Positions 4,106 through 27,186 of a stretch of DNA of 64,000 nt are shown one piece after another. The notes beneath the pieces are model-generated. The model searched no databases and was not told the origin of the DNA. It saw only the letters and a list, made by a program, of their open reading frames with translations. Position 1 is the stretch's first letter; each line of letters starts with the position of its first letter. A program made the translations under genes and the position numbers. Source of the stretch: Blastocatellia bacterium UBA7656 (GTDB taxonomy: Bacteria > Acidobacteriota > Blastocatellia > UBA7656); NCBI GenBank assembly GCA_002483445.1, contig DLHY01000152.1, positions 4,021 through 68,020 of the forward strand. Direction: 5' to 3'.

Positions 4106-4978
4106 TCATTTCGCCTTGAACAGGCTGTCGTCGAGAGGCTCCTTATGAGAAACCTTCTGCACCGAAAGCTCCCAGTCCCGGAGGTCTGCGCGGAACCCTG
4201 ATTCGCGCGCGAGTTGCAACTTGTAGCGGTGCGGGAGCGTCACCCCGTCGACTGCGCGAAAGTCGTCGAACTCTTCGGTGAGTTGTTGACGAGTGGACTG
4301 CATTCTGGACGAATCAGGAGCGTCTGAGCCGAACGTGTTATCGATTTCATATCTGTATTCGGTGCGAAGGTGACGGAACGTCTCGGCGTCGAAGTACAGC
4401 GTGATTTTCAAATCAGCCAGCCCTTTGCGTTTGCGATAATCCACCGCGTGCGCCTGCTGACCCTCGACTTTCTTCAGTCCTTTATACTCCAGCCGGGGCT
4501 GCCTCTCCTCCATTCGCGCGAGCGGCCAGGTCGTCGAAAGCACTCCGCCCACCAATCCTTCCTGAAGCGGCAATTGAAATCGGAAGAAAAAGTCGCTCAG
4601 AGGCTGGCCCTTTTGATACTGAAGGAACCCAGTGGCGACGCGCTCTCCGTCGAATATGATCTCTTCTTCTTTTCTGTCGCGAAGGATTCTCGGCCACAGT
4701 ATGGTGCAGCGGAACTTCGCGCCCGCAGAAATTATTCTCGCGACCGTATCCTCCTGATATGGGCTGCCGGTGCGTATGACGAACTTCAACTGGCCGCTGG
4801 CCATACGGGTTTTGATCGCAGAGCGGGCCTCCGGGCTGCCGATGGATTCGAGATGACGCGAGAGGAGTTCCTCAATCGTCATCTTTTTATCCTGAGCGAG
4901 CGAAGGGTTGATCAAATTCGCGGAGAAACTCAAGGCGATGAAAATCGATGCAAGATAGATGAGAAAGCTTTTGTTCAT
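4106..4978 (-). CDS. Secreted hypothetical protein (signal peptide; possibly LolA/DUF3108-like beta-barrel).
   Basis: MNKSFLIYLASIFIALSFSANLINPSLAQ signal peptide; no catalytic motifs recognised. Confidence 0.5.
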   Translation of the reverse strand: MNKSFLIYLASIFIALSFSANLINPSLAQDKKMTIEELLSRHLESIGSPEARSAIKTRMASGQLKFVIRTGSPYQEDTVARIISAGAKFRCTILWPRILRDRKEEEIIFDGERVATGFLQYQKGQPLSDFFFRFQLPLQEGLVGGVLSTTWPLARMEERQPRLEYKGLKKVEGQQAHAVDYRKRKGLADLKITLYFDAETFRHLRTEYRYEIDNTFGSDAPDSSRMQSTRQQLTEEFDDFRAVDGVTLPHRYKLQLARESGFRADLRDWELSVQKVSHKEPLDDSLFKAK

Positions 4979-5006
4979 GATACTGCCTCCTGGGGTTTGA
5001 GACGCT

Positions 5007-6542
5007 TCACATCCGCGTAATCATATCCGATTCAATCGCGCCCGCAATCGAAGAAGCTTCTTCCATCAGTCTTCGTATCTCGCTTCGTATCTCGCTGGCT
5101 TCTTCTGCGGGAAGCATACTGAGATTGACTCCCACGTTGTAGCAAGCGCCTTTTGTTGCCGCAAGCGCCATCTGCCCGCCTGTGGCTATGTCTGAAAATG
5201 CGTTCTGATTCGCGATCCTCGAAAGCTCGCTCAGATACTTTAACACTTCAACTGCGCGACGTGCCGTCTCCATCGGCGCGCCTGCCGCCCTGCGCCCTGC
5301 CGCTTCTATCCTGAGATTACGCTCCGCCTTCTGCTCCTCCGTCTCTTTCGGCAGGCGGTAGGCTTCCATCACTGCCTCGAAGCTCGCCGCATCTTCAGCG
5401 ATCAAAGCGCGCAACCTCCCGCCTATGCGCTCAAGCTCCGACGCGATCTCTTTTACTCGCGGCTCCACATCGGCGTACTTCTTTTTGCCAACGGTGAGAT
5501 TGCAAACCATTCGACCGAGCGAAGCGGCAAGCGCGCCCGAATGCGCCGCGACGCTGCCTCCTCCGGGCGTGGGCGTGTTTGCCGCGACAAGCTCGCTGAA
5601 CGTTCCTGTGCTATCTGCAAGATTATCTTCCGCAGTTTCCGCGGCGGCTTGCAGCCTGTGTTCAAGTATCTGATCCGGGCTGAAGTTCTCAAGCCTGAGA
5701 TAAAAATCCACAGCAGCATCGAGGGCGCGCTGAGGGACGAGTCCGACGATCTCTGATCCGACTATTGCCACGCCATAACGTTCGGCTTCGCGGCGGATCA
5801 TTTCGAAAGCGCGAAACAGGGGCGTTCCCTCGTAGTTGACCATGTTCATCGAGACCTGAACTATACGGCGATCTTTCAATTCGAATCCTAAAGCTTTCAC
5901 GTAACGAAGCCCGCCGGTCTGATGGCGCACGGCGCGAGCGATTCGGTGTGCAATCTCTATGTCAGATGTTGCGAGGTTCACGTTATAGGCGATGAGCGGC
6001 GGGCGCGCGCCGACGGCTGTAATTCCCGCCGTCGGATGAAGGCGGGCCTCTCCTAAGTCGGGCAGTCGCGCAGGGTTCGAAGCTATCTCGTCGCGTATGC
6101 CTTCGAACTGCCCTTTGCGCAACGCGGCGAGGTTTTCTCTTTCGGGCCGCGCGGCCGCTTTTTCATAAAGGTAAACCGGGATGCCGAGTTCTTTCCACAT
6201 CCTTTCGCCGCACTCTCGCGCAAGACGGACGCAATCATCCATAGTCACGCCCGCGATAGGAACGAAGGGGATGACATCGGTTGCGCCCATGCGCGGATGC
6301 TCGCCCTTGTGATGATTGAGGTCGATTAACGCGGCGGCTTTGCGCGCGGCAGCCAGCGCGGCATCGACTACTCGTTCGGGCGCGGCGACGAAGGTGATGA
6401 CTGAGCGGTTATGATCCGGGTCGGATTCGCGGTCTAACAGCACCGCGCCGGGGGTGGATCGTATGGCCGCGACTATCTCATCGATGACTTCAGCGCGACG
6501 GCCTTCGCTGAAGTTCGGTATGCATTCGACTATGTTTCGCAT
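5007..6542 (-). CDS. ftcD: Glutamate formimidoyltransferase fused to formiminotetrahydrofolate cyclodeaminase (FtcD-like, histidine degradation).
   Basis: N-terminus MRNIVECIPNFSEGRRAEVIDEIV...VITFVAAPE...HPRMGATDVIPFVP is the formiminotransferase domain; C-terminal ~200 aa (TFSELVAANTPTPGGGSVAAHSGALAASLGRMVCNLT) is the cyclodeaminase domain. Confidence 0.85.
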   Translation of the reverse strand: MRNIVECIPNFSEGRRAEVIDEIVAAIRSTPGAVLLDRESDPDHNRSVITFVAAPERVVDAALAAARKAAALIDLNHHKGEHPRMGATDVIPFVPIAGVTMDDCVRLARECGERMWKELGIPVYLYEKAAARPERENLAALRKGQFEGIRDEIASNPARLPDLGEARLHPTAGITAVGARPPLIAYNVNLATSDIEIAHRIARAVRHQTGGLRYVKALGFELKDRRIVQVSMNMVNYEGTPLFRAFEMIRREAERYGVAIVGSEIVGLVPQRALDAAVDFYLRLENFSPDQILEHRLQAAAETAEDNLADSTGTFSELVAANTPTPGGGSVAAHSGALAASLGRMVCNLTVGKKKYADVEPRVKEIASELERIGGRLRALIAEDAASFEAVMEAYRLPKETEEQKAERNLRIEAAGRRAAGAPMETARRAVEVLKYLSELSRIANQNAFSDIATGGQMALAATKGACYNVGVNLSMLPAEEASEIRSEIRRLMEEASSIAGAIESDMITRM

Positions 6543-11174: not shown

Positions 11175-14000
11175 CTAAAGCCTGATTATTTTCGATTCGC
11201 ACTCAGGCATTCCGAGTTTGCGAGTGACGTTTCGCGTATCGAGTATGAGCGGCGCGAGGCGGGCTACGCGCGAGTAGTCTACGTTTGAGTGATCCGTCAC
11301 TATCAGCGCGCAATCGCATGAGACGATAAGTTCGTCCGTGAGCGGCTCGCTTCGGAGCGCCTCCTTGCTGTCGAGCCTCATCTCCGCGATATAAGAATCG
11401 TGATAGCTGACTCGTGCGCCTTTCGCTATGAGTTCTTCGACTATGGCGAGTGCAGGCGATTCCCGCACATCATCGATATCGCGCTTGTAGGCCACGCCCA
11501 GCACCAGCACGCGCGACCCTCTGAGCGGTTTGCTGTGATCGTTCAAAGCGTCCTGAACCCGACCGATCACATAGCGAGGCATGTGCGAATTGACTTCTTC
11601 GGCCAATCCGATGAAGCGCGCTTCGAATCCGTGCAGCCGCGCTTTCCATGAGAGATAGTGAGGGTCGAGAGGTATGCAATTATGCGCATAAATCCCGAAT
11701 GAAGTAGCGAACGTGTGAGTGTCTTCGACCTCGACGGAGTATACATCGACTGGGGATTCAGGCAGAGCAATCTCGATTGATTTAATCGGAACAGTCATAA
11801 GCAATCCTGCTGCTTTGAATGTTTTGCTTGCCGGAGCGCGACGGCTTTCTTCAAAGTATCGTTCTAAAGATTTGCCTTTGTTTCCAAGCCAGCCACGCAA
11901 CTTCATCAACTGCTCTCGACCTTTGAGTCTGAGATGCGGCTTCACACGATTAAATGTTGGAGTAAAGCCGAGGCTTTGAAGCAGGTAGACAGTTTGTTGA
12001 AACAATATAGGGCTGCTGCTGAAGAAGCCCACTTCTGCTGAAGCGTTTCGGCTGATATAACTCCGACCGTTTTTCCTGTAAGGCCGCATTCCTGTAATCA
12101 CATAAACATCCCCATCTCCGCGCAAAAGACCTTTGAGCAGTTCCCGCCGATGCACAGGAGATGCGCTCATCAAAACGTCAGGCACTCGCATGTCTGTGGA
12201 GCGCGCGCCGCAACTAAGCACATCTGCAAACAGCCATCCGAGCAATGGGGAACTAGCGCGAATATGTGTGGCTCTGTCGATTTTCGAATGGCTAATACTG
12301 CTCTTCACCCCCAATTCATTTTGCAAAAGGGAACGAACATCGTTGATGAATTCTGTCTCTGCACTGTTGAAAGTAAAACGAATTCGATAGCGCCCGTACT
12401 CGCGACTGATGCAACCTTCTGCAAGGTAATATCCAATCAGCCTCGCCAGACCGGGGGTCAGATTTATCTTTACGGGAAAAGATGTCATGCTTGGCCCTCG
12501 TCCTGTGTGCAGGCGAAGCGATTCATGAGGAAGGCTCAAATCTCCCGATCTTTCCAGTGCAAGAAAATCGTTAAATGGAACATAATCCTGACGCATGAAT
12601 TCATGAATAGAACTGGCTGACAGCCTGCTGCGAAGCGATTCCCGATGATCGCGCCATACTCCACCAACTATTCGAATCCGTGCCTTTGCCGCCAGATCGG
12701 AAGGTATAAGCGAAAATAGATCAAGGGATGGGTTGGTTGCATCGCCCGTTAATCCTCCCATCACAGGCGTAGGCAAATAGTGAATGGGGATTCGATCACC
12801 CGATGTCAAATCTCTGGCAAACACCTGACGCAATCGACCCTGCTCATCGCTCACCAGCATCGGATGTTTGTCGGTCGCCTTCAAACGCCGGTTGTCGCTC
12901 GTCGTGACGGTGACGATTTCTCCTTCATACTTGCGGCGGAAAAGGTATGTGAGGGGTTTCCATACGGGCTGCTGCGTTTCAGCATCGAGCGACAAAGCTT
13001 CAAGACCAGGCGCGTAAATAATCTCCGCGCCGTCGACAGTGAATCGGCGCACATCCGGCTTCGAAACCTGTTCAGCAAAAATTGCGGCGAGCGACGTGAC
13101 GCGCTCTATCTTCTCATTAGCAGATCGAACGATTATGGTTTCTTGTCCAACCAGACAATGCCCACCTATTCCGGGGCCGGGATAGAAGGCCATGAATCCG
13201 AATGGCTTGGTCGCTGCCGCATGAATGACTTCCCACGAATCGATCCCGAGATGATGGCAAAGCTGAGCCATCTCGTTGACTAAAGCTATGTTGACGGAAC
13301 GAAAAGTATTTTCCAGAAGCTTCGCCGTCTCGGCCACTCTCGCGCTCGAAACCTTATGCACTCGCTCTACGATGGTTTGATAAAGCGCCGCCGCAATCTC
13401 GGTCGACAACCCTGACACTCCGCCGACTACTTTCGGGATGTTATGAGTTTGAAACTGAGGATTGCCCGGATCGACTCTTTCAGGCGAGAAGGCAAGAAAA
13501 AAATCCTTGTCCAGAGCAAGCCCCCTCTCTTCCAGCATCGGAAGCAACACTTCGTCGGTCGTGCCGGGATAAGTGGTCGATTCGAGAATGACCAATTGAG
13601 GCGAACGCAGATTGGCTCTCACCTGCTCGCTTGCGGCGAGGATGTAAGAGATATCAGGCTCTTTGGTTTTGCGAAGCGGAGTCGGCACGCAAATGATGGC
13701 AGCATCTATTTCTTTGAGGCGCGAAAAATCGGTCGTCGCCCTTAGCTTTTCTCTTTCAACAAGCGCGCGTATCGATTCGGTAGCAACGTCGGGTATATAA
13801 GAAACTCCTGAATTGATCGTTTCAGTTCGATGGGCGTCGAGATCGAATCCTAAAACGCTGAACCCGCCGCGACCGAATTCGACCGCAAGCGGCAATCCCA
13901 CATAACCGAGTCCGAGTATGCCCACGACGGCGCGACGCTCTATGATTTTGCTCAATAATTCTGCGCTCATTTTTATTTCCTCGATCCTTGCGCGTGACAC
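11175..14000 (-). CDS. UDP-N-acetyl-D-mannosamine/UDP-sugar 6-dehydrogenase (WecC/TviB/Cap5O family) interrupted by an in-frame intein.
   Basis: N-extein: GILGLGYVGLPLAVEF Rossmann motif, then ...PGPGIGGH. C-extein begins CIPLDPHYL (canonical GGHCIP catalytic-Cys motif) and continues with the UDP-binding domain (VLVLGVAYKRDIDDVRESPA). Exteins sum to ~448 aa, a normal size for this family. Confidence 0.85.
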   Translation of the reverse strand: MSRARIEEIKMSAELLSKIIERRAVVGILGLGYVGLPLAVEFGRGGFSVLGFDLDAHRTETINSGVSYIPDVATESIRALVEREKLRATTDFSRLKEIDAAIICVPTPLRKTKEPDISYILAASEQVRANLRSPQLVILESTTYPGTTDEVLLPMLEERGLALDKDFFLAFSPERVDPGNPQFQTHNIPKVVGGVSGLSTEIAAALYQTIVERVHKVSSARVAETAKLLENTFRSVNIALVNEMAQLCHHLGIDSWEVIHAAATKPFGFMAFYPGPGIGGHCLVGQETIIVRSANEKIERVTSLAAIFAEQVSKPDVRRFTVDGAEIIYAPGLEALSLDAETQQPVWKPLTYLFRRKYEGEIVTVTTSDNRRLKATDKHPMLVSDEQGRLRQVFARDLTSGDRIPIHYLPTPVMGGLTGDATNPSLDLFSLIPSDLAAKARIRIVGGVWRDHRESLRSRLSASSIHEFMRQDYVPFNDFLALERSGDLSLPHESLRLHTGRGPSMTSFPVKINLTPGLARLIGYYLAEGCISREYGRYRIRFTFNSAETEFINDVRSLLQNELGVKSSISHSKIDRATHIRASSPLLGWLFADVLSCGARSTDMRVPDVLMSASPVHRRELLKGLLRGDGDVYVITGMRPYRKNGRSYISRNASAEVGFFSSSPILFQQTVYLLQSLGFTPTFNRVKPHLRLKGREQLMKLRGWLGNKGKSLERYFEESRRAPASKTFKAAGLLMTVPIKSIEIALPESPVDVYSVEVEDTHTFATSFGIYAHNCIPLDPHYLSWKARLHGFEARFIGLAEEVNSHMPRYVIGRVQDALNDHSKPLRGSRVLVLGVAYKRDIDDVRESPALAIVEELIAKGARVSYHDSYIAEMRLDSKEALRSEPLTDELIVSCDCALIVTDHSNVDYSRVARLAPLILDTRNVTRKLGMPECESKIIRL
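11679..13157 (-). mobile_element. Full-length intein (~493 aa) with LAGLIDADG homing-endonuclease domain, inserted at the catalytic cysteine of the UDP-sugar dehydrogenase.
   Basis: Block A CLVGQETIIV. Block B ATDKHPMLV (TxxH). LAGLIDADG motifs LIGYYLAEGCIS and LKGLLRGDGDVYV. Block F VYSVEVEDTHTFA. Block G ...GIYAHN followed by +1 Cys (CIPLD). Junction codons checked in DNA: ...GGH|C at 13155-13157 and N|C at 11679-11681 / 11676-11678. Confidence 0.8.
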
Positions 14001-14056: not shown

Positions 14057-14120
14057 AATGCGGAATTGCGAATGCGGAATGCGGAATAAGGGAATCTTTC
14101 TTCATTCCGCACTCCGCATT
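14057..14120. repeat. Microsatellite hairpin (GCGGAAT repeats vs ATTCCGC repeats) between wecC-like start and heptose-kinase stop.
   Basis: aatgcggaattgcgaatgcggaatgcggaat ... cattccgcactccgcatt; the right arm overlaps the stop codon at 14119. Confidence 0.6.
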
Positions 14121-16349: not shown

Positions 16350-16593
16350 CAATTCTTCATCATTTCAGGGCGTCGTTGAAAACGGCCTGAGCGATTTCTC
16401 AGAAAACGTACAGCAGGCTGCCAGCCTGCGGGTTCCCCGTTTTCATGCTTTCAGTTCATGCGCAATCTAACAGATTGCGCCATAGGGAATCCTTTCTTGA
16501 AGCGGAGAAGTCTAGCACTCGGTCAGCGAGGCGGTCAATTTTCGCAGCCGTTGAAAGCCCGGTATCTGCGTGATAATCTTTCAACACTCCATA

Positions 16594-17565
16594 ATGAAGC
16601 CCGAAGGAAAAATAAATCTCTTTTCGCGCTCGAAGGCGCTGGTCGCCGCGACAGTAGCGGCAGTTTTTTTCATCTCTTCGGCTCTGGCCCAAAAAGAGCA
16701 GGTCATCAAGCTCAACACCGATCTCGTCGTCATCGATGTGACTGTCACCGACAAGGATGGCAACTTCATTCGCAACCTCAAGGCTGAGGATTTCGCGATC
16801 TACGAAGACGACCAGATGCAGAAGATCGATTTCTTCGAGATGAATGAAGAAGCGGCGCTGACACGTCCGCTCGCTGTCGTCTTCGCGCTGGACGTATCGG
16901 GCAGCATCACTTCCGAAGAAGTCATCAAGCAGCGCGAGGCGACCGAGCATTTCATGAAACTGGTTCGCACTGATTCGGTCTTCTCTATCATCGCTTTCAA
17001 CAATGAAATCCGAGTCCTTCAGGATTTCACCAGCGACGCGAAGCGAATCAGATCGGCTTTCGAGAAGATCAAAGAGGTCGGCGGCTCTTCAAGAATTTTC
17101 GGCTCGATAGATCGCTCGGTTTCCCTGCTCCGTCGCGCCCCGCGCTACAAAAGCGGAAGGCGGTTGCGTCGCGTGGTCGTCGTACTCAGCGACGGATTCG
17201 ACAACATAGACCCGACCGATCAGACGGAATTGATCCGCCGCGCCAACGAAGCAGAGGTCACGGTTTATTCGATCACGCTGCCTTCATACCTTCCGGGCGC
17301 GATTGCGAACCAGCGGTCGATGACCTTGCTCGATGTCTCGCGCATAGTGCCGATGACGGGAGGCAAGGATTTTTCGGCGGACACGAAAGATTTCACTCCC
17401 GTATTCAAATCCATCGCCGAAGAAATCCGCGCGAGTTATACGCTGGCCTATTATCCGCCCGAAGAGAGTCGAAGAGACGGGCGCGCGCATCAACTTCGCA
17501 TCGAAGCCCGCCGCAGCGGAGCGATAGTGCGCGCGAGTCGGACAACCTATCAGGCTCCCAAATGA
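16594..17565 (+). CDS. von Willebrand factor type A (VWA) domain protein, secreted.
   Basis: Signal peptide; MIDAS motif AVVFALDVSGSIT; typical VWA spacing (VLSDGFDN...). Start at MKPEGK (16594) preferred over the upstream ATG. Confidence 0.75.
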   Translation: MKPEGKINLFSRSKALVAATVAAVFFISSALAQKEQVIKLNTDLVVIDVTVTDKDGNFIRNLKAEDFAIYEDDQMQKIDFFEMNEEAALTRPLAVVFALDVSGSITSEEVIKQREATEHFMKLVRTDSVFSIIAFNNEIRVLQDFTSDAKRIRSAFEKIKEVGGSSRIFGSIDRSVSLLRRAPRYKSGRRLRRVVVVLSDGFDNIDPTDQTELIRRANEAEVTVYSITLPSYLPGAIANQRSMTLLDVSRIVPMTGGKDFSADTKDFTPVFKSIAEEIRASYTLAYYPPEESRRDGRAHQLRIEARRSGAIVRASRTTYQAPK

Positions 17566-17616: not shown

Positions 17617-20600
17617 TCAACTCCCATTGCCGCACGGGGCGACGATGCTGTCTCTGGTGTCAGAATCGATGATCGTACACTTCACCGTTCCCGGCGGCAT
17701 CTGCAACACTCCCTGCCCCTTCTTCTGACACGTGTCATAAGTCAGCGTCAGCCTCCTGTTCCCGGAGTTGTGCGTCAACGTCAACACGCATCCCTTCTTC
17801 ACTATCGTCCCCTTCCCGCTTACGATCATCCCTCCGCAGCACACCATGTAATCCCCCGTCAGCGTGTTGATGAATATCGCTCCTCCTCCGCTGTCGCTCC
17901 TTATCGCCACGTCGAACGTCGTCACGATGAAGCTGCAACTCGCAGTGTTGCCGCTCGTGTCCGTCGCCGTGCAAGTCACCGTCGTAAATCCTGCCGGGAA
18001 ACTCGATCCACTCGGCGGTGTGCAAACGGTCATCATCACTGCGCAGTTGTCCGATGAAGTCGGCGCTGGGTAATTCACCACCCCCGGCGGAGCCACCTGT
18101 GTCGGCGGACACACTATCGAAGGCGCCTGTGTGTCGTTGACCGTTACGGTGAAGCTGCACATCGCCGTGTTGCTGCTGGCGTCGGTCGCCGTGCAAGTCA
18201 CCGTCGTCGTCCCTACCGGGAATGTTGAGCCTGACGCGGGCGCGCACGCCACTCCTACTCCAGGACAGTTGTCCATCGCTGTTGCCATGAAAGTCACTAC
18301 CGCTGAACACTGCCCCGCTGTGTTTCCTGTCACTATGTTCGAGGGACACGTTATGCTCGGCGGCTGCATATCGTTGACCGTTACGGTGAACGAGCAGTTG
18401 GCTGTGTTGCCTGCTCCATCGCTCACTGTGCAGCCGACCGTTGTGACTCCTTTCGGGAATGTTGAGCCTGTCGGCGGGGTGCAAACCGGCGTCCCAACGC
18501 CAGAACAGTTGTCTGAGACCATCGGCGCTGAATAGCTCACGACTGCCGTACACACTCCCGCATCTGTTGACTGTGTGACCGGCGACGGACAGGTGATCGA
18601 AGGCGCATCGTCATCATTGATCGTTACACTGAAGCTGCACATCGCAGTGTTGCCGCTTGCGTCGGTCGCCGTGCAAGTCACCGTCGTCGTTCCTGTCGGG
18701 AATGATGTCCCGGTGTTTGGCGAGCAGGCCACACTCACTCCCGGACAGTTGTCCGCCCCTGTCGGCACCGTGTAGTTGACTATCGCTGCGCACATTCCAG
18801 CGTCCGTACCCTGCGTGATGTTAGAAGGACACATCACGGTCGGGTTCTCGGTGTCGTTGACCGTGACGGTGAACGAACAACTCGGCCCCACTGAGGTCGA
18901 ACACGTTACAGTCGTCGTGCCGACAGGGAACGATGAGCCTGATGCGGGATTGCAAGTCACCGTTCCGCAACTGCCCGTCGTCGTCGGGTTGGAGTAGCTG
19001 ACGACAGACGAACACTGGCCCGCGTCGTTGTTGGTCGTGATGTTCGACGGACAACTGATCGTGCATTGCACCACTTCTATGGTGAAAGAGCAGGAAGCTG
19101 TGTTGCTGCTGGCGTCAGTCGCCGTGCAGGTGACAGTCGTCATCCCAACGGGGAAGCACATCCCCGATGCTGGCGCGCAGACGACCATCGCTCCCGGACA
19201 GTTGTCTGTAGGAGTTGGAGTCGTGTAGTTGACCGTCGCGCAGCCAGCCCCGGTCGAAATCAGCATGTTGGGCGGGCAGGTGATCGAAGGAGGCTGATTG
19301 TCTGTCACCGTGACGGTGAAGGAACACATCGCCGTGTTGCCTGCTGCATCCGAGACCGAACAGGTAACGGTAGTCATCCCAACACTGAAGGATGAGCCTG
19401 ATGCGGGCGCACACATAGGCGTGCCGACTCCGGGACAGTTGTCCGAGGCCGTAGGCGGGGTGTAATTGACCGTTACGGTACACTGGCCCGCAGGCGGGGT
19501 CGTTGAGATATTAGACGGGCAGCCGATCAGCATCGGGTTTTCGGTGTCGTTGACCGTCACGGTGAAAGAGCATTGAGCCATCAGCCCTCCGGCATCAGTC
19601 ACGGTGCAGGTGACGGTCGTAGTCCCCTTGGGGAAAGCTGTTCCGGTGTTGGGAGCGCAGACGACATTGGCGCCTGGGCAGTTGTCCATCGGAGAGGGGA
19701 CGGTGTAGTTGACCACTGCTGTGCAAAGTCCCGAATCGGTGTTTGTAGTGGCGTTGGCCGGACAGGTGATGGTCGGATTCTCATTGTCGTTGACGGTGAC
19801 GGTGAAAGAGCAGTTGGCCGAGCCTGCTGAGTTGGTGGCCGAGCAGGTGACGGTAGTGACACCTTTGGGGAAAGCGAAGCCAGAAGCAGGAGAACACATC
19901 ACAGTAGGGACAGGGCAGCCGGTGACGGTGGGAGCGAAAGTTTCGACCGCCGTGCATTGACCCGGATCAGTATCAGTAGTGATGTTGGCCGGACAAGAGA
20001 TGGTCGGCACAGTGACTATAGTTGTGACAGTAGGCTGAGCGCCCATCATGCCAGCATCGCCGTCGGTTTGAATGTTAATGCCGCCATCGGCAGTGACAGT
20101 ACCCTGATTGGAGACAGAGCAGACACCATTGGGGAGCGGGTCATTGATCGTGACGTTGAACATGACGGTGATACTCTTGCCCGCAGGAAGGGTGAACGGG
20201 CCGAAGCTAACGGTCTCGCCGCTGGGAGTCATCACAGCAACACGTCTGGCGCGTGATCTGTAGTTGCTTGCGAACCCAGCAGGGTCAGCCCTCATCACGA
20301 CAGGCTTGAGCATCTCGTCAGATATAGCTGCCTGATCTGTCGCCGGGTTGAAGACGGCATAACGAGCATCGGCGGGAATTTTCGCCCTATCGGTTTGAAC
20401 ATTCGCCGTGCTGCTTTCAACCTGCGCGCCAGCGTGCTGGCTGCTCGCTTGCTTCACCGACTTGTCATCAGTAGAGGGCTTGATTGAGCCTATGGGCGAA
20501 GGAGTTACTTTCCACTGGTCAAGCGGCAAGCGCCTGACGCCAGGTGAAAGCGTGCCTTCCATAAGCGGCTGTAGGTTCTTCCGCTCTTTCTTCGGGAGCC

Positions 20601-23600
20601 GGTCTTTGCCCTGCATATAAACGTACCCAAGCTCGCGTATCACTACTGTGAGCAAGTCCATCTTGCCGTGCGCGATACTCAGGTCAGTCGTTTGAAGCTC
20701 TTTATCAGGAACAAGCACCTGGAATTCGCCGTCTTCCTGAGGTGTTTCATCGAAGTACCAGCCATAGCCTGCCGCCGTCTTATCAATCTTGACGTGTGTT
20801 GAAGAGACGTCTGCAAACTGATCGCCTGGCAAGTCAGCCATTTCGAATGAAACTGCGCGAAGGCGCGCGAGGTCTTCGGCAGCGATTTCTAACTGCTCCC
20901 ATCTTGCAAGGGCCGCTTGAACCGTCCATTGCAACTCGGCATCTTGGAGCTTATTAACCTGTTCTTCGCTTTGCCGCTCGCTGCTTGCGGCGACACAAGC
21001 GCTAGGAGGCCCCTTGCCTTCTTCGGGAGGCAGACTCAATGAGCCTGAGTCCGCAACGCCCCCTCTAAAAACAGATAATGGGGTCGTAATCGGCCCGGCA
21101 ATGAGCGCGACCCCGAACGCGGAGGCCGTGCCGGTATTTGTACTCGTCAATTGCGCCGTGGCATCGGCGCTCGCCGGCGGGGTGTCAACCAATTGCCCGA
21201 TGCCGTGACCGCCCGCCGCATCGTACTCGTAATAGGCAAGCTGCGTTGGAAGCAGGTCGAAAGTGGTCGTGCTGGGAACTATGTTGCCGCGCACGTCAGC
21301 CCGAACCGTTGGCGCTTTGTTGTCGGCACCAGTCTGGTTGTCGGCTTCGATCATAATCGCCGACAGAGGAAATCCAGATGGCGCCGGACCGGGGTCAACG
21401 TCGTTGTTAGTGAGGGTCACGTCGCTGGTCACGGTGTTCGGACCAAGGCTGCTGGCGAGAGGAGGCGCGGGGCCACGGAAAGCCACCGCGATACCGCGAG
21501 CGTCTGGCGTGCTCCTGATACGGTTGCCGTCGATGAGCATAGTAGCATCTGTCTGTCCCTGAATGACGACAGAAATGCCGCTGGCAACGGTGGCGCCATT
21601 GTTAATGTGGTTTCCCGAGATGGTGGCGACGATAGTGCCGCCGGTCGCCTGCGAGGATGAGAAGACGTTAACGGCCTGTAGAACAGTGCCAGTCATTGGA
21701 GACGCGAGCGTGCCATTATTGATGAACTTGAATGCATTGTTGGAACTGCTGTCCTGGGTGAAGCTGGCGTGGATGCCGTTGTTAGTGAACGTGTTGCCAG
21801 AGACGGTGAAATATGTTGCTGGTATGGCAGAAGTATTGCCGATTCTTCCGGTGTCGTGCGTCTGCACTTCCAAAGCTCGCTGGGGCGAGTTGTTGGTAAA
21901 CGTGCATCCGCTGATGCTCGCTACAGTCGTCACAGCCGTTCCCGACATCTCGAACAGGAACGCGTTGGCGCCGAACGTGTCGTTGAGGTCGTTGAAGGTG
22001 CTGTTCGTCACCGTGAACGAATCGATTGTCCCTGAGGTGTTGCGGAGGTGAACATTGTTGTGCGCGTTCCCGTTGACAGAGCTGTTGGTAATCGCTACGG
22101 TTCCGATTACACCCACAAAGGTACCCGATGGTTCGCCGAATCGAATTCCATCGTCGGAAGTGCTGTTGCCGTTGGTCGTGACGTTGCTGCGGTTGAGCGT
22201 GAAGCCATTGACATTGAGGCCCTTGATCCCGCTATCACCGCTGTTCTGGATGTTCATGTAGCCGAGGGAGACGTTGGTTGCGGCGTCGATTGCGACACCA
22301 TTCCCGCTTGAACTTTTGATAGAGCCCCCTGAGCCGTTGTTTGAAGCCCCGCCATCTCCTGCGACGGTAAAACTGCCGCTGGTTCTCGTAAGGATCAGGC
22401 CGCTTGTACCACCGCTTCCAGACGCCTCATTCATAGATACTTTCGTCAGCGTCATCATTAGTGGAGTTGTGCTGCTGCTGCGTGTGATCTCAACAGCCGT
22501 CGCGCTAGTGGTGCTGATAGTGCCGCTGGTCGTCGTGATGGTCATCGTGTTTTCGGTGGCGAGCAAGCCTCTCTGGTTTTGTTCCGGTGAGATGTTGAGA
22601 GCGCCAAATGTGATTGTGCCAGTGTTGGTAAGCAGGCTGACTCCTGTATTGCCTGTAGTGTTGGCATCTGGATTGGTTACGCTGGTAGTGCCAAAATTGA
22701 GAGTGGCGCTTGAAGTATTAACACTTATGCCAATGCCCGCCGCGTCCGTGACGGTTGTCGAACCAGACGACAGGCTACCGCTTGCGCTCGTCAGGCTTAT
22801 CCCTGTCGTCGTGCTGCCCGTCGATGTCAACGAGGTGAACGTCATCCCTATCGTCGTCGGATTGACATTGAGCGCAGGCCCGCCCGTCGCCACAACCGTA
22901 CCGCCGCTCACGTTGACCGTCCCGCTGCTCGCGGCTAGTATGCCCGTACCCGCTGTCACGCTGACCGTCACTCCTCCGCTGAAGTTGAATGTCGTCGCTC
23001 CGTTCGTTGCCAGATTGATTCCTGTCGCCGTGGCGTTCGTGATCGTAGTCGCTCCGCTTACGGTGAACGTCCCGCCCGTCGCTCCTGTCACTCTCAACCC
23101 TTGCGCTCCCGTCGTCGAACTCGCGCTCTCCAACGTCACCCCCAGCGTTCCCGCTGTCTGAATATCAACAGCCGCTCCCGGATTGCCCACCGCCTGCACT
23201 GTATCAGCGTTGAGGTTCCCGACGCTCGATCCGCCTATTCCTGCGCTTGCTCCTCCGGCGGCTGTCGTCTGCGCGACGAGTCCTCGCACCGTGTTGCCGC
23301 TTGCCAGCGTCACTCCGTTTCCTCCGCTATTGGTGATCGTCGGCTTCGCTCCCGCTGGGTTGAGCGTCAGGCTCGCGACGACCAAAGCCACTCCTTGCCC
23401 GATCAGTTTCTGACCAGTTTCAAGTCCTATCCCTGTCGTGTAATTCCCGCTTCCCGTGTGCACATAGATGAACTCGTTGGGATCGTCCGCGTCTCCCGCG
23501 CCTCCCGCTCCGTTTACTGGCGCGAGTGTCTGGAAGGGTGAAGTGGAACGTCCGTCGCCGCCTGCCGCTGATGCGTTGTTGACGTACCAGACCATCTCCG

Positions 23601-24285
23601 TGACCGTGATCGTGACTGTAGCCGTGCTGGTCTTTCCTGCCGAATCCTTGATCGTGTAGGTGAAGGTGTCTGTCCCGGTGAATCCTACCGGCGGCACATA
23701 GTCGAGATGGCCAAAGACCGGGTTGATGCTGACGTTGCCTCCCTGCGCGCTCGGATTTTGAAATGTGTCGAGCGTGAAAGTATCGCCGAGGAACTCCATA
23801 TCGTTGTCGAAGAGCGAGTCTCCTGGAATTACGACTTCAGGGCCGCTCACCGAGGCACTACCGACCTTGAGGCGAGTATTGCCGATAGTCGTGTAAGCGT
23901 CGTTGCCCGCCAGAGGCGAGACGTTGACTGATCCCATCACCAGAGTGGTGTTGGCGTCAATCATATCGGTGAACATCACGTTGGTAGCCGGGTCGGGGCC
24001 TCCATTGGAGAGAGTGACGGAGTACATCAAGGTGTCGCCGGGTTCGGCATTCCCGCCATTGACATCAGTGGCCGTTTTGGTCGCTGACAGGGAAGGAGCG
24101 AATGGGGCGGAGGTGATGACCGAAACCGGATCAAGGACAGAGGACATCTCGCTTTTGACAACAGGGATCGAATTCTCTGATCGAGAGGAAGAGGCGGGCT
24201 GGATGGCCAGCAGCAGCGTCAATCCTACGATGGCTGCTGATGAACGAATCAAAGTACCGGCAAGGCTAACACGATTTCTCCTCAT
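17617..24285 (-). CDS. Giant secreted surface/adhesin-like protein (~2222 aa): signal peptide, parallel beta-helix/POMP-like T/S/G-rich region, 9 tandem HYR domains, conserved C-terminal module.
   Basis: Start ATG 24285 with GGGAG SD (MRRNRVSLAGTLIRSSAAIVGLTLLLA). Nine CPxN...PxGxxF.xGxTxVTCxAxDxxGNxxxCSFTVTV units (HYR). C-terminal ~100 aa has a CCGG...LTL.HN...LQ.PPG...C.I.D..RD...CG.GGS pattern shared with the 38757..40877 protein. Confidence 0.8.
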   Translation of the reverse strand: MRRNRVSLAGTLIRSSAAIVGLTLLLAIQPASSSRSENSIPVVKSEMSSVLDPVSVITSAPFAPSLSATKTATDVNGGNAEPGDTLMYSVTLSNGGPDPATNVMFTDMIDANTTLVMGSVNVSPLAGNDAYTTIGNTRLKVGSASVSGPEVVIPGDSLFDNDMEFLGDTFTLDTFQNPSAQGGNVSINPVFGHLDYVPPVGFTGTDTFTYTIKDSAGKTSTATVTITVTEMVWYVNNASAAGGDGRSTSPFQTLAPVNGAGGAGDADDPNEFIYVHTGSGNYTTGIGLETGQKLIGQGVALVVASLTLNPAGAKPTITNSGGNGVTLASGNTVRGLVAQTTAAGGASAGIGGSSVGNLNADTVQAVGNPGAAVDIQTAGTLGVTLESASSTTGAQGLRVTGATGGTFTVSGATTITNATATGINLATNGATTFNFSGGVTVSVTAGTGILAASSGTVNVSGGTVVATGGPALNVNPTTIGMTFTSLTSTGSTTTGISLTSASGSLSSGSTTVTDAAGIGISVNTSSATLNFGTTSVTNPDANTTGNTGVSLLTNTGTITFGALNISPEQNQRGLLATENTMTITTTSGTISTTSATAVEITRSSSTTPLMMTLTKVSMNEASGSGGTSGLILTRTSGSFTVAGDGGASNNGSGGSIKSSSGNGVAIDAATNVSLGYMNIQNSGDSGIKGLNVNGFTLNRSNVTTNGNSTSDDGIRFGEPSGTFVGVIGTVAITNSSVNGNAHNNVHLRNTSGTIDSFTVTNSTFNDLNDTFGANAFLFEMSGTAVTTVASISGCTFTNNSPQRALEVQTHDTGRIGNTSAIPATYFTVSGNTFTNNGIHASFTQDSSSNNAFKFINNGTLASPMTGTVLQAVNVFSSSQATGGTIVATISGNHINNGATVASGISVVIQGQTDATMLIDGNRIRSTPDARGIAVAFRGPAPPLASSLGPNTVTSDVTLTNNDVDPGPAPSGFPLSAIMIEADNQTGADNKAPTVRADVRGNIVPSTTTFDLLPTQLAYYEYDAAGGHGIGQLVDTPPASADATAQLTSTNTGTASAFGVALIAGPITTPLSVFRGGVADSGSLSLPPEEGKGPPSACVAASSERQSEEQVNKLQDAELQWTVQAALARWEQLEIAAEDLARLRAVSFEMADLPGDQFADVSSTHVKIDKTAAGYGWYFDETPQEDGEFQVLVPDKELQTTDLSIAHGKMDLLTVVIRELGYVYMQGKDRLPKKERKNLQPLMEGTLSPGVRRLPLDQWKVTPSPIGSIKPSTDDKSVKQASSQHAGAQVESSTANVQTDRAKIPADARYAVFNPATDQAAISDEMLKPVVMRADPAGFASNYRSRARRVAVMTPSGETVSFGPFTLPAGKSITVMFNVTINDPLPNGVCSVSNQGTVTADGGINIQTDGDAGMMGAQPTVTTIVTVPTISCPANITTDTDPGQCTAVETFAPTVTGCPVPTVMCSPASGFAFPKGVTTVTCSATNSAGSANCSFTVTVNDNENPTITCPANATTNTDSGLCTAVVNYTVPSPMDNCPGANVVCAPNTGTAFPKGTTTVTCTVTDAGGLMAQCSFTVTVNDTENPMLIGCPSNISTTPPAGQCTVTVNYTPPTASDNCPGVGTPMCAPASGSSFSVGMTTVTCSVSDAAGNTAMCSFTVTVTDNQPPSITCPPNMLISTGAGCATVNYTTPTPTDNCPGAMVVCAPASGMCFPVGMTTVTCTATDASSNTASCSFTIEVVQCTISCPSNITTNNDAGQCSSVVSYSNPTTTGSCGTVTCNPASGSSFPVGTTTVTCSTSVGPSCSFTVTVNDTENPTVMCPSNITQGTDAGMCAAIVNYTVPTGADNCPGVSVACSPNTGTSFPTGTTTVTCTATDASGNTAMCSFSVTINDDDAPSITCPSPVTQSTDAGVCTAVVSYSAPMVSDNCSGVGTPVCTPPTGSTFPKGVTTVGCTVSDGAGNTANCSFTVTVNDMQPPSITCPSNIVTGNTAGQCSAVVTFMATAMDNCPGVGVACAPASGSTFPVGTTTVTCTATDASSNTAMCSFTVTVNDTQAPSIVCPPTQVAPPGVVNYPAPTSSDNCAVMMTVCTPPSGSSFPAGFTTVTCTATDTSGNTASCSFIVTTFDVAIRSDSGGGAIFINTLTGDYMVCCGGMIVSGKGTIVKKGCVLTLTHNSGNRRLTLTYDTCQKKGQGVLQMPPGTVKCTIIDSDTRDSIVAPCGNGS

Positions 24286-24909
24286 AACATCACTCCCTTT
24301 GTGAAGGCGGACGAGCCGCTCGGCGATATTAAACGGGATCATTTTTCCGGCCTGATCTTCCTCGACGGCATCTGGGGAAATGCCGGATCAGGCTATTGCG
24401 TAGGCATTCAGAGATAGAGCCTCAGAGTCAAGCGCGCAAAGCGTCGCCGTGGAGATGAGACTCGATTCTCAAAAACAGAAAGCAGGCGCGCACATACTGA
24501 AAGCGCGCGACAGGGCGGCGAAACACAGTGAGCGAAAAGAGCCTTTTGTTTTTACCATTCCGGTTTCGAAAGACCGTAAGTTATGCTCGAAGCGAACTGC
24601 AAAAACACTGAAACATTGGCTGATGAAGAATCGTCAGTCGGGGCTTATCTTACTCGACCACAGGTCGAATATCCAGACAAGTTTTCTACCGGCAATTGAA
24701 GGCATCAAGTCGGGTGAAGCGCAGCCTTATGCATTGTGCGTTTACGAATTGAAAGTATTGAAACCTCGCTCCACTATCAGTACAATCCCGACTGTCCGAT
24801 CTGCCCCCGATTCGCCAGTATCCTCATTCGAAAAAATATAGCTGATCGACACCGATTGATCGGCCCGCGTCCTCACCACCCGATTCGCGCTCCGACTCTT
24901 AGTGAAAGG

Positions 24910-27186
24910 ATGACCTTCTCGATGAAAGGCTTTCGATATTTGCTCATCTCTCTTGGCGCAGTCTTTTTTTTATCCGTAACCGCATCGGCAAACACTTATT
25001 ACGTTTCAACCACAGGCAATAACAACAATCCCGGAACCGAAGGGCTGCCGTGGCAGACCATTCAGTACGCCGTCGATCACGTCTCTCCGGGCGATACCAT
25101 TCTCGTCCAATCCGGCTCTTACGCGGGATGCCGCATCACGCGCTCAGGCACAGCCAACGCTCCCTGTACGCTCAAAGCCGCGCCCGGAGCCAGTGTCCTT
25201 ATCAATTCGCTCAGTCCCGCGAACAGACATCAGAGTCTCATCGAAATTGAAAACTTCGATGCGGTGGTCAGCTACTGGATAATCGATGGATTCGAGGTCG
25301 CCAACGGCGCGCGATACGGCATCGATCTTCGCTTTACGGATCACGTCACCATTCAGAACTGCCGCGCGCACGGCAGCCGACTCACAGGCATCTTTCTTGC
25401 GTTCTGTTACTTTCCGCTCATTCAAAACAACGAGTCTTACTCGAACGGCGAACATGGAATCTATCAGAGCAACAGCGGGGACAACCCTGTGATTCGAAGC
25501 AACAATCTGCATCACAACTTTGCCGCAGGGCTTCACATGAACGGCGACCGCAACTTCACTCCCGGCGACGGAATAATTTCTTTCGCGGTTGTTGAAAAAA
25601 ACATCGTCTGGGAAAACGGAACGGGCGGCGGATCGGGTATAAACTGCGACGGCGTATCGGACAGCATCATCCGCAACAACCTGCTCTATAACAATCGCGC
25701 AAGCGGCATTTCGCTTTACGCAATCGATGGCGCTGAAGGATCGAGCCGCAATCGCGTCTACAACAACACCATCGTGATGCCATCGAACGGGCGATGGTGC
25801 ATAAACATCCCGGCTTCGACCGAAGGCCAGACGAACCCCACAGGCAACAAGATCAAAAACAATATTCTCTACAACGCCCATTCGTTTCGCGGCGCGATCA
25901 CTACATACTCGAACGCGGCAAGCGGGTTCGAAAGCGATTACAACATCATCGTTCCACGCTTCAGCACGGACGGCGGCAGCAGCAACATGAATCTGTCTCA
26001 ATGGCAAAGTCGAGGATACGATCTGCATTCCGCCACGGCGACGCTCGATCAATTATTCATCGATGCGGCGGCTTTGAATTTTCGATTGAAGACCGCCTCG
26101 CCCGCTCAGGATTTCGGCACTGTGCTCGCGGATGTCACTCAAGACATAGACGGAGTCGCGCGCCCGCAAGGCGCAAAGCACGATGCGGGATGCTATGAAG
26201 CGCAGCAGTCGCCTCAAGCGCCCGTCGCTGATTTTTCGGCAAGCCCTGTGAGCGGCACGGCTCCGCTTGCAGTTCAGTTCACCGATCAATCGACCAATGC
26301 AACCGGGTGGCAATGGGATTTCGGCGATGGAGGAAGTTCTTCGCAGAAAAATCCTTCGCACACTTATCAAAACGCTGGAAGCTACACCGTCTCGCTGACG
26401 GCTTCGAATGCTGCCGGGATGTCAGTCAAAACGAAGACCGGCTACATCACCGCTTCCCAAGCGCCTCAGCCGCCCGTCGCTGATTTTTCAGCAACTCCGT
26501 TGACCGGTAATGCGCCACTGATAGTTCAGTTCAATGATCTGTCAACCAACGCGACCGGATGGCAGTGGGACTTCGGCGATGGAGGAAGTTCTTCGCAGAA
26601 AAATCCTTCGCACACTTATCAAAGCGCGGGCAGCTACACCGTCCGGCTTACTGCTTCAAACGCAGCGGGTCAGTCGATCAAAACGAAGACCAGCTACATC
26701 ACAGTCTCTCAAGCGCCGCCACCTCCACCGCCGCCCATCGCGCAGGATTACACATGCACGTCGGTTACGGTCGATTCAGGCAAAGTGAAATCGGGCAATC
26801 ACACGAGCGTTCACTCGTCGGACGATGTCACGCTGCAAATTCGTTCGAGCAATTCGGGCGGATTGCAGGCGGCGCAATCGACATACCTGTTCGAGACTGC
26901 GCTCAACCGGCTATCGAGCCTCACAGTGATGACGGAGGCGAAAGTCTCCATCAAGCCGCAGCGACAGCGCGTGATGGTCTTCAATTTCTCGACCAATCAG
27001 TGGGACACGATTGACGACCGCCAGATCACGAGCAAGAGCGATCAGGCGGTAACGATCAACGTGTCGAATCCTTCGCTCTACATCTCAGCTTCGGGGCAGG
27101 TGAGGGTTCGCATCAGAAGCGGCGACTCGACAACCAGCGGGTGGAAGCACTCGGTCGATTTAGTGAAGATCACCGCCGCGCCTTGA
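24910..27186 (+). CDS. Secreted right-handed parallel beta-helix protein with two tandem PKD domains and a C-terminal domain of unknown function.
   Basis: Start ATG 24910 (AAGGA SD). Signal peptide MKGFRYLLISLGAVFFLSVTASA. NNxxxN/beta-helix repeats (IIRNNLLYNNRASGISLY). Two PKD units (WQWDFGDGGSSSQKNPSHTYQ.AGSYTV.LTASNAAG). Confidence 0.75.
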   Translation: MTFSMKGFRYLLISLGAVFFLSVTASANTYYVSTTGNNNNPGTEGLPWQTIQYAVDHVSPGDTILVQSGSYAGCRITRSGTANAPCTLKAAPGASVLINSLSPANRHQSLIEIENFDAVVSYWIIDGFEVANGARYGIDLRFTDHVTIQNCRAHGSRLTGIFLAFCYFPLIQNNESYSNGEHGIYQSNSGDNPVIRSNNLHHNFAAGLHMNGDRNFTPGDGIISFAVVEKNIVWENGTGGGSGINCDGVSDSIIRNNLLYNNRASGISLYAIDGAEGSSRNRVYNNTIVMPSNGRWCINIPASTEGQTNPTGNKIKNNILYNAHSFRGAITTYSNAASGFESDYNIIVPRFSTDGGSSNMNLSQWQSRGYDLHSATATLDQLFIDAAALNFRLKTASPAQDFGTVLADVTQDIDGVARPQGAKHDAGCYEAQQSPQAPVADFSASPVSGTAPLAVQFTDQSTNATGWQWDFGDGGSSSQKNPSHTYQNAGSYTVSLTASNAAGMSVKTKTGYITASQAPQPPVADFSATPLTGNAPLIVQFNDLSTNATGWQWDFGDGGSSSQKNPSHTYQSAGSYTVRLTASNAAGQSIKTKTSYITVSQAPPPPPPPIAQDYTCTSVTVDSGKVKSGNHTSVHSSDDVTLQIRSSNSGGLQAAQSTYLFETALNRLSSLTVMTEAKVSIKPQRQRVMVFNFSTNQWDTIDDRQITSKSDQAVTINVSNPSLYISASGQVRVRIRSGDSTTSGWKHSVDLVKITAAP
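26206..26706 (+). repeat. Near-identical tandem duplication (~249 bp x2) encoding the two PKD domains.
   Basis: Protein repeats differ at only ~10 of 83 positions; DNA blocks starting ~26206 and ~26455 are nearly identical. Confidence 0.7.

Follow-up and report, generated by a model that had tools for sequence, protein, structure and literature searches.

A predicted class-1 LAGLIDADG homing intein directly before the catalytic cysteine of a nucleotide-sugar dehydrogenase from a Blastocatellia-like acidobacterium

The stretch of DNA analysed here, a 64-kb window of contig DLHY01000152.1 from Blastocatellia bacterium UBA7656, carries on its reverse strand a Cap5O/WecC-like nucleotide-sugar dehydrogenase gene that is interrupted by an intein. 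The insertion point is located directly before the codon of the cysteine in the GGHC motif, which we take to be the catalytic nucleophile of the enzyme, as established for Cap5O and UDP-glucose dehydrogenases. We put the probability at about 88% that the insert is a class-1 LAGLIDADG homing intein of a Blastocatellia-like acidobacterium, which splices itself out to restore GGH-C and frees a homing endonuclease. Both splicing and DNA cleavage as actual events are what we infer from the sequence.

The limits of the intein are set by its two splice junctions. In the maximal open reading frame (ORF), the GGHC motif spans residues 279–282 and an AHNC motif spans residues 772–775, so that the insert comprises residues 282–774 and corresponds exactly to positions 11679..13157. 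An earlier note on this DNA had placed a 493-residue LAGLIDADG intein exactly at the conserved active-site cysteine of GGHC; the coordinates and length were reproduced to the base, and the location is borne out by the motifs and by profiles that score above their cutoffs. The Pfam profiles Intein_splicing (PF14890) and LAGLIDADG_3 (PF14528) matched with 47.3 bits (cutoff 35.8) and 46.4 bits (cutoff 22.5), and the profiles of the intein N-terminus (TIGR01445) and C-terminus (TIGR01443) with 31.9 (cutoff 24.5) and 22.1 (cutoff 15.6), respectively. The canonical blocks that the note had listed (A, B with TDKHP, two LAGLIDADG motifs, F, and G with His-Asn and the +1 cysteine) could all be re-read from the DNA, and re-inspection of the C-terminal junction found both the terminal His-Asn and the +1 cysteine (...YAHN, then C). 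At the level of sequence, this confirms the insert as a class-1 intein with a two-motif LAGLIDADG endonuclease.

The residues that define the intein are retained among its relatives. Cys1, the histidine of the TxxH motif (H379 in ORF numbering), the His-Asn pair, and Cys+1 are invariant in two alignments of carriers (A1 and A3), and both acidic residues of the LAGLIDADG motifs are conserved among carriers. In a third alignment of relatives (A2), T95 of block B is invariant and H98 is at least 90% conserved. Residues G242, Y243, Y244, L245, E247, G248, and C249 of the first LAGLIDADG motif are each at least 90% conserved in the same alignment, and G343, R346, G347, D348, and G349 of the second motif are invariant.

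Readings of the insert as a bacterial intein-like (BIL) domain, a class-2 or class-3 intein, or part of a pseudogene were ruled out on residue evidence. BIL and Hedgehog/Hint domains have the HINT fold in common with the window intein, and the PT-HINT profile scored below its threshold (18.7 bits vs. a cutoff of 27.7). BIL domains are found in variable regions of non-conserved proteins, have no endonuclease, and usually lack the +1 nucleophile and the Asn pair. Unlike them, the insert in the window keeps all intein-defining residues and is positioned in the most conserved motif of its host. It is hardly credible that the insert is a non-splicing domain or that the gene is an inactivated pseudogene encoding a non-functional dehydrogenase. 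The frame is open over 2.8 kb, and none of the four residues that act as splicing nucleophiles or assist in splicing is missing; all of them are invariant. The ratios of non-synonymous to synonymous divergence (dN/dS) point to strong purifying selection on both the exteins (0.06–0.15) and the intein (0.13), and neither a second copy of the dehydrogenase nor a second intein was found within the 64-kb window. Furthermore, the identical protein, with its matches to intein Pfam domains, recurs in independent public assemblies, one of which is a biofilm metagenome (ENA ERZ922866).

The joined exteins are colinear with known dehydrogenases, as the earlier note had proposed to check. The Pfam domains of the UDPG_MGDP_dh type, PF03721, PF00984, and PF03720, each exceed their cutoff and occur in this order. 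The extein-only protein (448 residues when counted from the GTG) matches positions 3–413 of the 413 positions of TIGR03026 in a single stretch, with an E-value of 2.6e-128 and a score of 428.3 (cutoff 189.8), whereas in the unspliced precursor the match falls into two pieces. The extein-only protein also aligns end-to-end with the Pyrococcus horikoshii UDP-ManNAcA dehydrogenase (PDB: 4r16, E 8e-66) and with Staphylococcus aureus Cap5O (PDB: 3ojl, E 3e-61), in both cases with GGHC on GGHC. By these alignments, the two UDP-ManNAc(A) dehydrogenases are the closest solved relatives of the exteins. The enzyme had been described as WecC/TviB-type. It passes the cutoff of the subfamily TIGR03026 but misses those of every equivalog: WecC (NF008286, 253.9 vs. 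459), archaeal WecC (NF040825, 276.4 vs. 750), and TviB (NF011729, 238.7 vs. 592). The description is therefore approximate, and we assign no substrate.

An empty insertion site was identified in Acidobacteriota metagenome-assembled genome (MAG) MAG146 (L002), which came from a scan of species-representative genomes. The locus has 81–84% nucleotide identity to the window and the same neighbouring genes. Its 453-residue dehydrogenase is uninterrupted and reads GIGGHCIPLDPHYLSW, with GGHCIPLDPHY lacking the insert. The allele around the insertion point, marked here by a slash, is GGTGGGCAT/TGTATCCCTCT. When the flanks of the intein in the window are joined, they give the DNA sequence of L002, GGTGGGCAT/TGYATMCCTCT, with an exact junction. 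Eighteen further alleles without the intein, all from other phyla, likewise read straight through this point.

The structure of the intein was predicted by AlphaFold2 from an alignment containing 25 homologues, with a mean predicted local distance difference test score of 89.8 and a predicted template modelling (TM) score of 0.89. The top matches of the model among PDB structures, found with Foldseek, are all intein endonucleases: PI-PkoII (PDB: 2cw7, E 2e-27, TM-score 0.66), TliVMA, PI-PfuI, and PI-SceI, with E-values of about 1e-18 for 7qsu, 1dq3, and 7qss. The splicing domain of the model superposes on the mini-inteins 5o9i, 4e2u, and 4o1s with root-mean-square deviations of 2.0–2.6 Å over about 125–129 columns, and is thus predicted to have the HINT fold. 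Modelled residues 235–395 follow an alpha-beta-beta-alpha-beta-beta-alpha order of secondary structure elements, and Foldseek superposes the centre of the intein on the free-standing LAGLIDADG enzymes I-Tsp061I, I-DmoI, and I-OnuI. The centre is predicted to form a pseudo-dimeric LAGLIDADG fold. PI-PkoII (intein-2 of the Thermococcus kodakarensis Pol, 2cw7), PI-PfuI (1dq3), TliVMA (7qsu and 7qss), and PI-SceI (1vde) share this architecture, in which the HINT domain is split by a two-motif LAGLIDADG endonuclease with an additional linker or DNA-recognition region. PI-PkoII is the closest solved sequence to the window intein (sequence match with E 1.3e-12), and the C-terminus SFGIYAHN resembles GFGLVYAHN in the comparison with this group. 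The four inteins differ from that of the window in their host genes, which encode DNA polymerase, ribonucleotide reductase, and V-ATPase, and in sequence, with an identity of merely 11–17%. The positions of the sequence elements are listed in Table 1.

Table 1. Coordinates of the dehydrogenase gene, its intein, and their sequence elements in the window.
Feature	Position	Strand	Basis or remark
Maximal ORF, intein-containing nucleotide-sugar dehydrogenase	11175..14000	-	941 aa from GTG 14000 (ORF list)
Probable real gene	11175..13970	-	ATG 13970, 931 aa
N-extein	13158..13970	-	Rossmann NAD-binding domain and most of the central domain; PF03721, PF00984; terminus ...PGPGIGGH read directly
Intein, class 1, 493 aa (ORF aa 282-774), Cys1 ... 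His-Asn	11679..13157	-	motifs, profiles, AlphaFold2 model, Foldseek
Block A CLVGQETIIVRSA, Cys1 nucleophile (C282, codon 13155..13157)	13119..13157	-	read from DNA; C282 invariant in A1 and A3
Block B TDKHP (TxxH; TDKH = intein aa 95-98)	12861..12875	-	read from DNA
Central cassette: linker, endonuclease, and region before block F	11757..12805	-	~1050 nt; L021 has ~125-135 unrelated nt instead (4945..5071)
LAGLIDADG homing-endonuclease domain, ~intein aa 225-440	11838..12485	-	PF14528, model, Foldseek, dN/dS
LAGLIDADG motif 1 LARLIGYYLAEGC, with intein residue E247 (acidic)	12411..12449	-	read from DNA
LAGLIDADG motif 2 ELLKGLLRGDGDV, with intein residue D348 (acidic)	12105..12143	-	read from DNA
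Blocks F and G DVYSVEVEDTHTFATSFGIYAHN, penultimate His, terminal Asn	11679..11747	-	read from DNA; H773 and N774 invariant in A1 and A3
+1 Cys (C775), splice-junction nucleophile; after splicing, presumed catalytic Cys of GGHC	11676..11678	-	read from DNA; invariant in A1 and A3
C-extein	11178..11678	-	CIPLDPHYL... through the UDP-binding domain; PF03720
Stop codon of the dehydrogenase gene	11175..11177	-

The arrangement of the junction residues indicates how the dehydrogenase could be matured. Translation would yield a precursor of about 931 residues, which would be inactive because 493 residues part GGH from its cysteine. Cys1 would then carry out an N-S acyl shift, and the resulting thioester would be attacked by the +1 cysteine, which is the future catalytic nucleophile of the enzyme. 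The terminal asparagine would cyclise with the assistance of the penultimate histidine, and an S-N shift would complete the sequence ...GIGGH-CIPLDPHY... of an ordinary dehydrogenase of about 438 residues (448 when counted from the GTG). The freed intein would act as a site-specific endonuclease of 493 residues and cleave alleles that lack it around GGTGGGCAT/TGYATMCCTCT; recombinational repair would then copy the intein into the cut allele (homing).

The position of the intein also bears on the idea that it serves its host as a conditional splicing switch that responds, for example, to redox state or temperature. A disulfide between Cys1 and Cys+1 could block splicing and keep this envelope-sugar dehydrogenase off. 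Other inteins have been proposed to splice conditionally (PMC4760082). The insertion at the catalytic nucleophile itself, and the inactivity of the precursor that this would entail, fit such a function, as does the presence of cysteines at both junctions in essentially all carriers. Native inteins also generally lie close to active sites (PMC3359363). However, a selfish element is equally expected at a catalytic residue, which offers a conserved homing target and where imprecise deletion destroys the enzyme. Endonuclease-free mini-inteins persist at the site across many bacterial and archaeal phyla, which a benefit to the host would explain, but they would be expected to persist anyway, since precise deletion is rare. 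We consider a regulatory role of the intein to be very doubtful.

Three states of the insertion site are found in related genomes: the full 493-residue intein of the window, a mini-intein of 185 residues in a 102-kb contig (L021), and the empty site of L002. The contig with the mini-intein is 95–97% identical to the window and syntenic with it over about 12.7 kb. The two inteins are 100% identical over nucleotides 1–352 of the intein and over approximately the last 70 nucleotides, and share residues 1–117 as well as about 23 residues at the C-terminal end. The central cassette of the window intein is replaced in L021 by an unrelated segment (Table 1), and the breakpoints are abrupt; aligning the two inteins globally with MAFFT gives a misleading picture. 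The unrelated centre and the sharp breakpoints reject the mini-intein of L021 as a simple recent deletion derivative of the window intein. Instead, an unrelated centre between identical ends with abrupt breakpoints resembles the outcome of a recombinational cassette exchange, and thus suggests that recombination has taken place between full and mini-intein alleles. Since the cassette boundaries are sharp in genomes that are 95–97% identical, endonuclease modules could re-invade resident mini-inteins by recombination inside the splicing domain. The mini-inteins that sister genomes carry at this site (for example P0030, which is that of L021, P0043, P0046, and P0047) have the same splice junctions as the window intein, but they are 169–210 residues long, have no endonuclease, and contain a short central linker that is unrelated to the centre of the window intein. 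Two other proteins, P0015 (766 residues) and P0017 (746 residues), contain inteins of intermediate size at the same site, which have lost the first LAGLIDADG half and kept the second (RGDGDV...). We read these two inteins as snapshots of endonuclease decay.

A recent movement of the intein is indicated by the comparison of the window with the Blastocatellia MAG PMV_6.28 (L001). The inteins are 88% identical in nucleotide sequence, with a synonymous divergence (dS) of 0.42 and a dN/dS of 0.13, in contrast to the N-extein (73% identity, dS 2.2, dN/dS 0.059) and the C-extein (68% identity, dS 1.6, dN/dS 0.154). The identity steps up at both intein junctions, and that of the neighbouring genes is merely 66–72%. 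In a set of 224 full-length carriers, the extein is normally the better conserved part, and in none of them does the identity of the intein exceed that of the extein by more than 5 points. The pair formed by the window and L001 is therefore an outlier, which indicates a recent transfer, and the sequence similarity of its inteins is best explained by horizontal acquisition. Relative to L001, the dN/dS of the endonuclease core is 0.088, the lowest of any intein segment, which argues that the endonuclease is functional or was so until recently. The GC content is 0.47–0.51 in the centre of the intein (11600..12650), 0.51–0.57 in the extein parts of the gene, and about 0.58–0.64 in neighbouring genes; the lower GC content of the insert is compatible with a foreign origin.

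Several observations weigh against the reading of the insert as a splicing and homing intein. The transfer is read from a single pair, the window and L001. Across the 224 carriers, the identities of intein and extein are correlated with r = 0.89, which implies that inheritance is mostly vertical and that homing may be infrequent. Mini-inteins are common at the site, and the endonuclease must therefore often be lost. A scan of viral contigs with the intein alignment for relatives that could point to phage vectors found none. In addition, block F of the window intein carries a serine (VYS) where many inteins, including PI-PkoII, PI-PfuI, TliVMA, and PI-SceI, carry an aspartate (VYD). The serine is at least 90% conserved among the relatives of the intein, and is thus a trait of the family rather than a mark of decay. 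The same correlation, together with the frequent mini-inteins, the half-deleted P0015 and P0017, and the absence of any endonuclease from L021, a genome 95–97% identical to the window, would fit an intein that still splices but whose endonuclease is already inactive or has a decayed specificity, so that the element would by now be a passenger at a late stage of the homing cycle, passed on by vertical descent and no longer mobile. We regard this as unlikely, though worth serious consideration. The two LAGLIDADG motifs, including their acidic residues, are conserved and show no damage, the endonuclease core is the most constrained segment of the intein, the intein common to the window and L001 is much younger than the surrounding exteins, and empty target sites are present in related genomes. 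An intein that retains a homing endonuclease remains the reading that we prefer.

The insertion of inteins at this residue is widespread. When the intein alone served as the query of a word-indexed search, 72 matches were obtained; nearly all of them lie in this host gene, and they come from Blastocatellia, Pyrinomonadaceae, other Acidobacteriota, and one Chloroflexi MAG. An exhaustive HMMER search of 1.84 billion representatives clustered at 50% identity resulted in 1516 matches with E-values of up to 1e-3, including 63 with E-values of up to 1e-30. Among the best 150 of these representatives, 73 are nucleotide-sugar dehydrogenases with an intein at the same position; the N-terminal junction reads GGH/C in 35 of these hosts and GGS/C, as in UDP-glucose 6-dehydrogenases, in 13, and HN/C was found in 44 of the 45 C-terminal junctions that could be read. 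In each of two profile searches, all of the best 120 listed matches have intein Pfam domains, and nearly all are full-length proteins of about 860–950 residues. The new matches of the A3 profile search that we examined have GGH/C without exception (118/118) and HN/C with one exception (117/118), and their inteins are 366–504 residues long, with a median of 488. Among the named carriers are Pyrinomonadaceae, Blastocatellia, Dictyoglomus thermophilum, Omnitrophota, Peregrinibacteria, Woesearchaeota, and Nanoarchaeota. They include the cultured D. thermophilum H-6-12, the complete genome of which encodes a dehydrogenase with a 481-residue intein (ACI19365.1). Many homologues already have the JGI product name 'UDP-N-acetyl-D-mannosaminuronate dehydrogenase/intein/homing endonuclease'. 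Under NCBI-style annotation, the proteins are called no more than 'nucleotide sugar dehydrogenase' or 'hypothetical protein', and the intein is therefore easily overlooked in comparisons of gene length.

The dehydrogenase inteins of all database relatives examined are located in the same host family and at the same residue (GGH/C or GGS/C to HN/C), and are of class 1 with a LAGLIDADG endonuclease. The window copy differs in its host, a Blastocatellia-type acidobacterium, and in sequence: the whole protein is 25–47% identical to non-acidobacterial carriers, with 46% to that of Dictyoglomus and 33–36% to those of archaeal type. By homology, the window intein is a further member of a large and already annotated family of allelic inteins, an ordinary case and not a discovery. 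The statement of the earlier note that inteins are rare in bacterial UDP-sugar dehydrogenases has to be abandoned, as hundreds of bacterial carriers have one at exactly this residue, including ACI19365.1. In InBase, inteins of this kind are entered as 'Mja UDP GD' and 'Dth UDP GD', the latter from Dictyoglomus. The Methanocaldococcus jannaschii 'UDP GD' intein (MJ1054) was not among the matches listed in the protein and representative searches, and literature searches for it gave nothing useful, so the comparison with archaea made here rests on homologues from Woesearchaeota and Nanoarchaeota. For inteins in Dictyoglomus, the literature searched yielded nothing but work about the XynB xylanase. 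The rarity claim of the note, with its remark that the known UDP-glucose dehydrogenase intein is archaeal, mirrors a survey by Novikova et al. from 2016, in which all ten UDP-glucose dehydrogenase inteins are from Euryarchaeota (PMC4760082), but it does not fit the sequence data.

The protein is probably 931 residues long rather than 941. The ORF of 941 residues in the earlier note does exist, beginning at a GTG, but three observations make ATG 13970 the likely start: a Shine-Dalgarno-like GAGGA is located 8–12 nucleotides upstream of it, the public gene call P0352 is a product of 931 residues that is identical from M11 onward, and homologues begin in the same register.

The dehydrogenase gene is located downstream of a gene for a D-glycero-beta-D-manno-heptose-7-phosphate kinase (TIGR02198, 405.9 bits, cutoff 345) and one of the GT9 heptosyltransferase family, and is followed downstream by a gene for a BNR/Ycf48-like protein. 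The order of the genes around the dehydrogenase is kept in L001, L002, and L021. The heptose kinase and the GT9 protein agree with the lipopolysaccharide-core/heptose cluster in which the earlier note had placed the gene, but the cluster does not extend further: the genes beyond these neighbours are unrelated, and encode a VWA-domain protein, a 2241-residue protein with HYR repeats, and a formiminotransferase-cyclodeaminase. Between the stop codon of the rfaE-like kinase gene and the start of the dehydrogenase gene there is a near-perfect hairpin (14066..14120, reverse strand) with a 19-bp stem and the repeated motif ATTCCGCATT. It has a minimum free energy of −34.1 kcal/mol and a z-score of −5.1 relative to shuffled sequences, and the 17-mer is found nowhere else in the window. 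The hairpin could be a terminator or a repetitive extragenic palindromic (REP)-like element between the two genes. Scans of the window for Rfam families and tRNAs gave no matches. The 2241-residue ORF (17617..24342, reverse strand) contains seven HYR domains (344 bits) together with Big_9, cadherin-like, and DUF11 domains, adjoins the VWA-domain gene (16570..17565), and encodes a putative giant surface protein or adhesin. A protein of 816 residues (24736..27186, forward strand) with a right-handed beta-helix of the NosD-like type and two PKD domains is probably either a secreted protein active on polysaccharides or a surface protein.

Inteins at the catalytic residues of conserved enzymes, including sugar dehydrogenases, are textbook cases, and the presence of one more carries little scientific weight. 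Nevertheless, the distribution of the family corrects the impression left by the 2016 survey that inteins of sugar dehydrogenases occur in Euryarchaea alone: large numbers are present in Acidobacteriota, Dictyoglomota, Omnitrophota, the candidate phyla radiation, and DPANN. The window, together with L021, L002, and L001, provides a compact natural series in which the homing cycle can be studied in uncultured bacteria from soil and biofilms, comprising a full intein, a mini-intein, an empty site, and one probable transfer.

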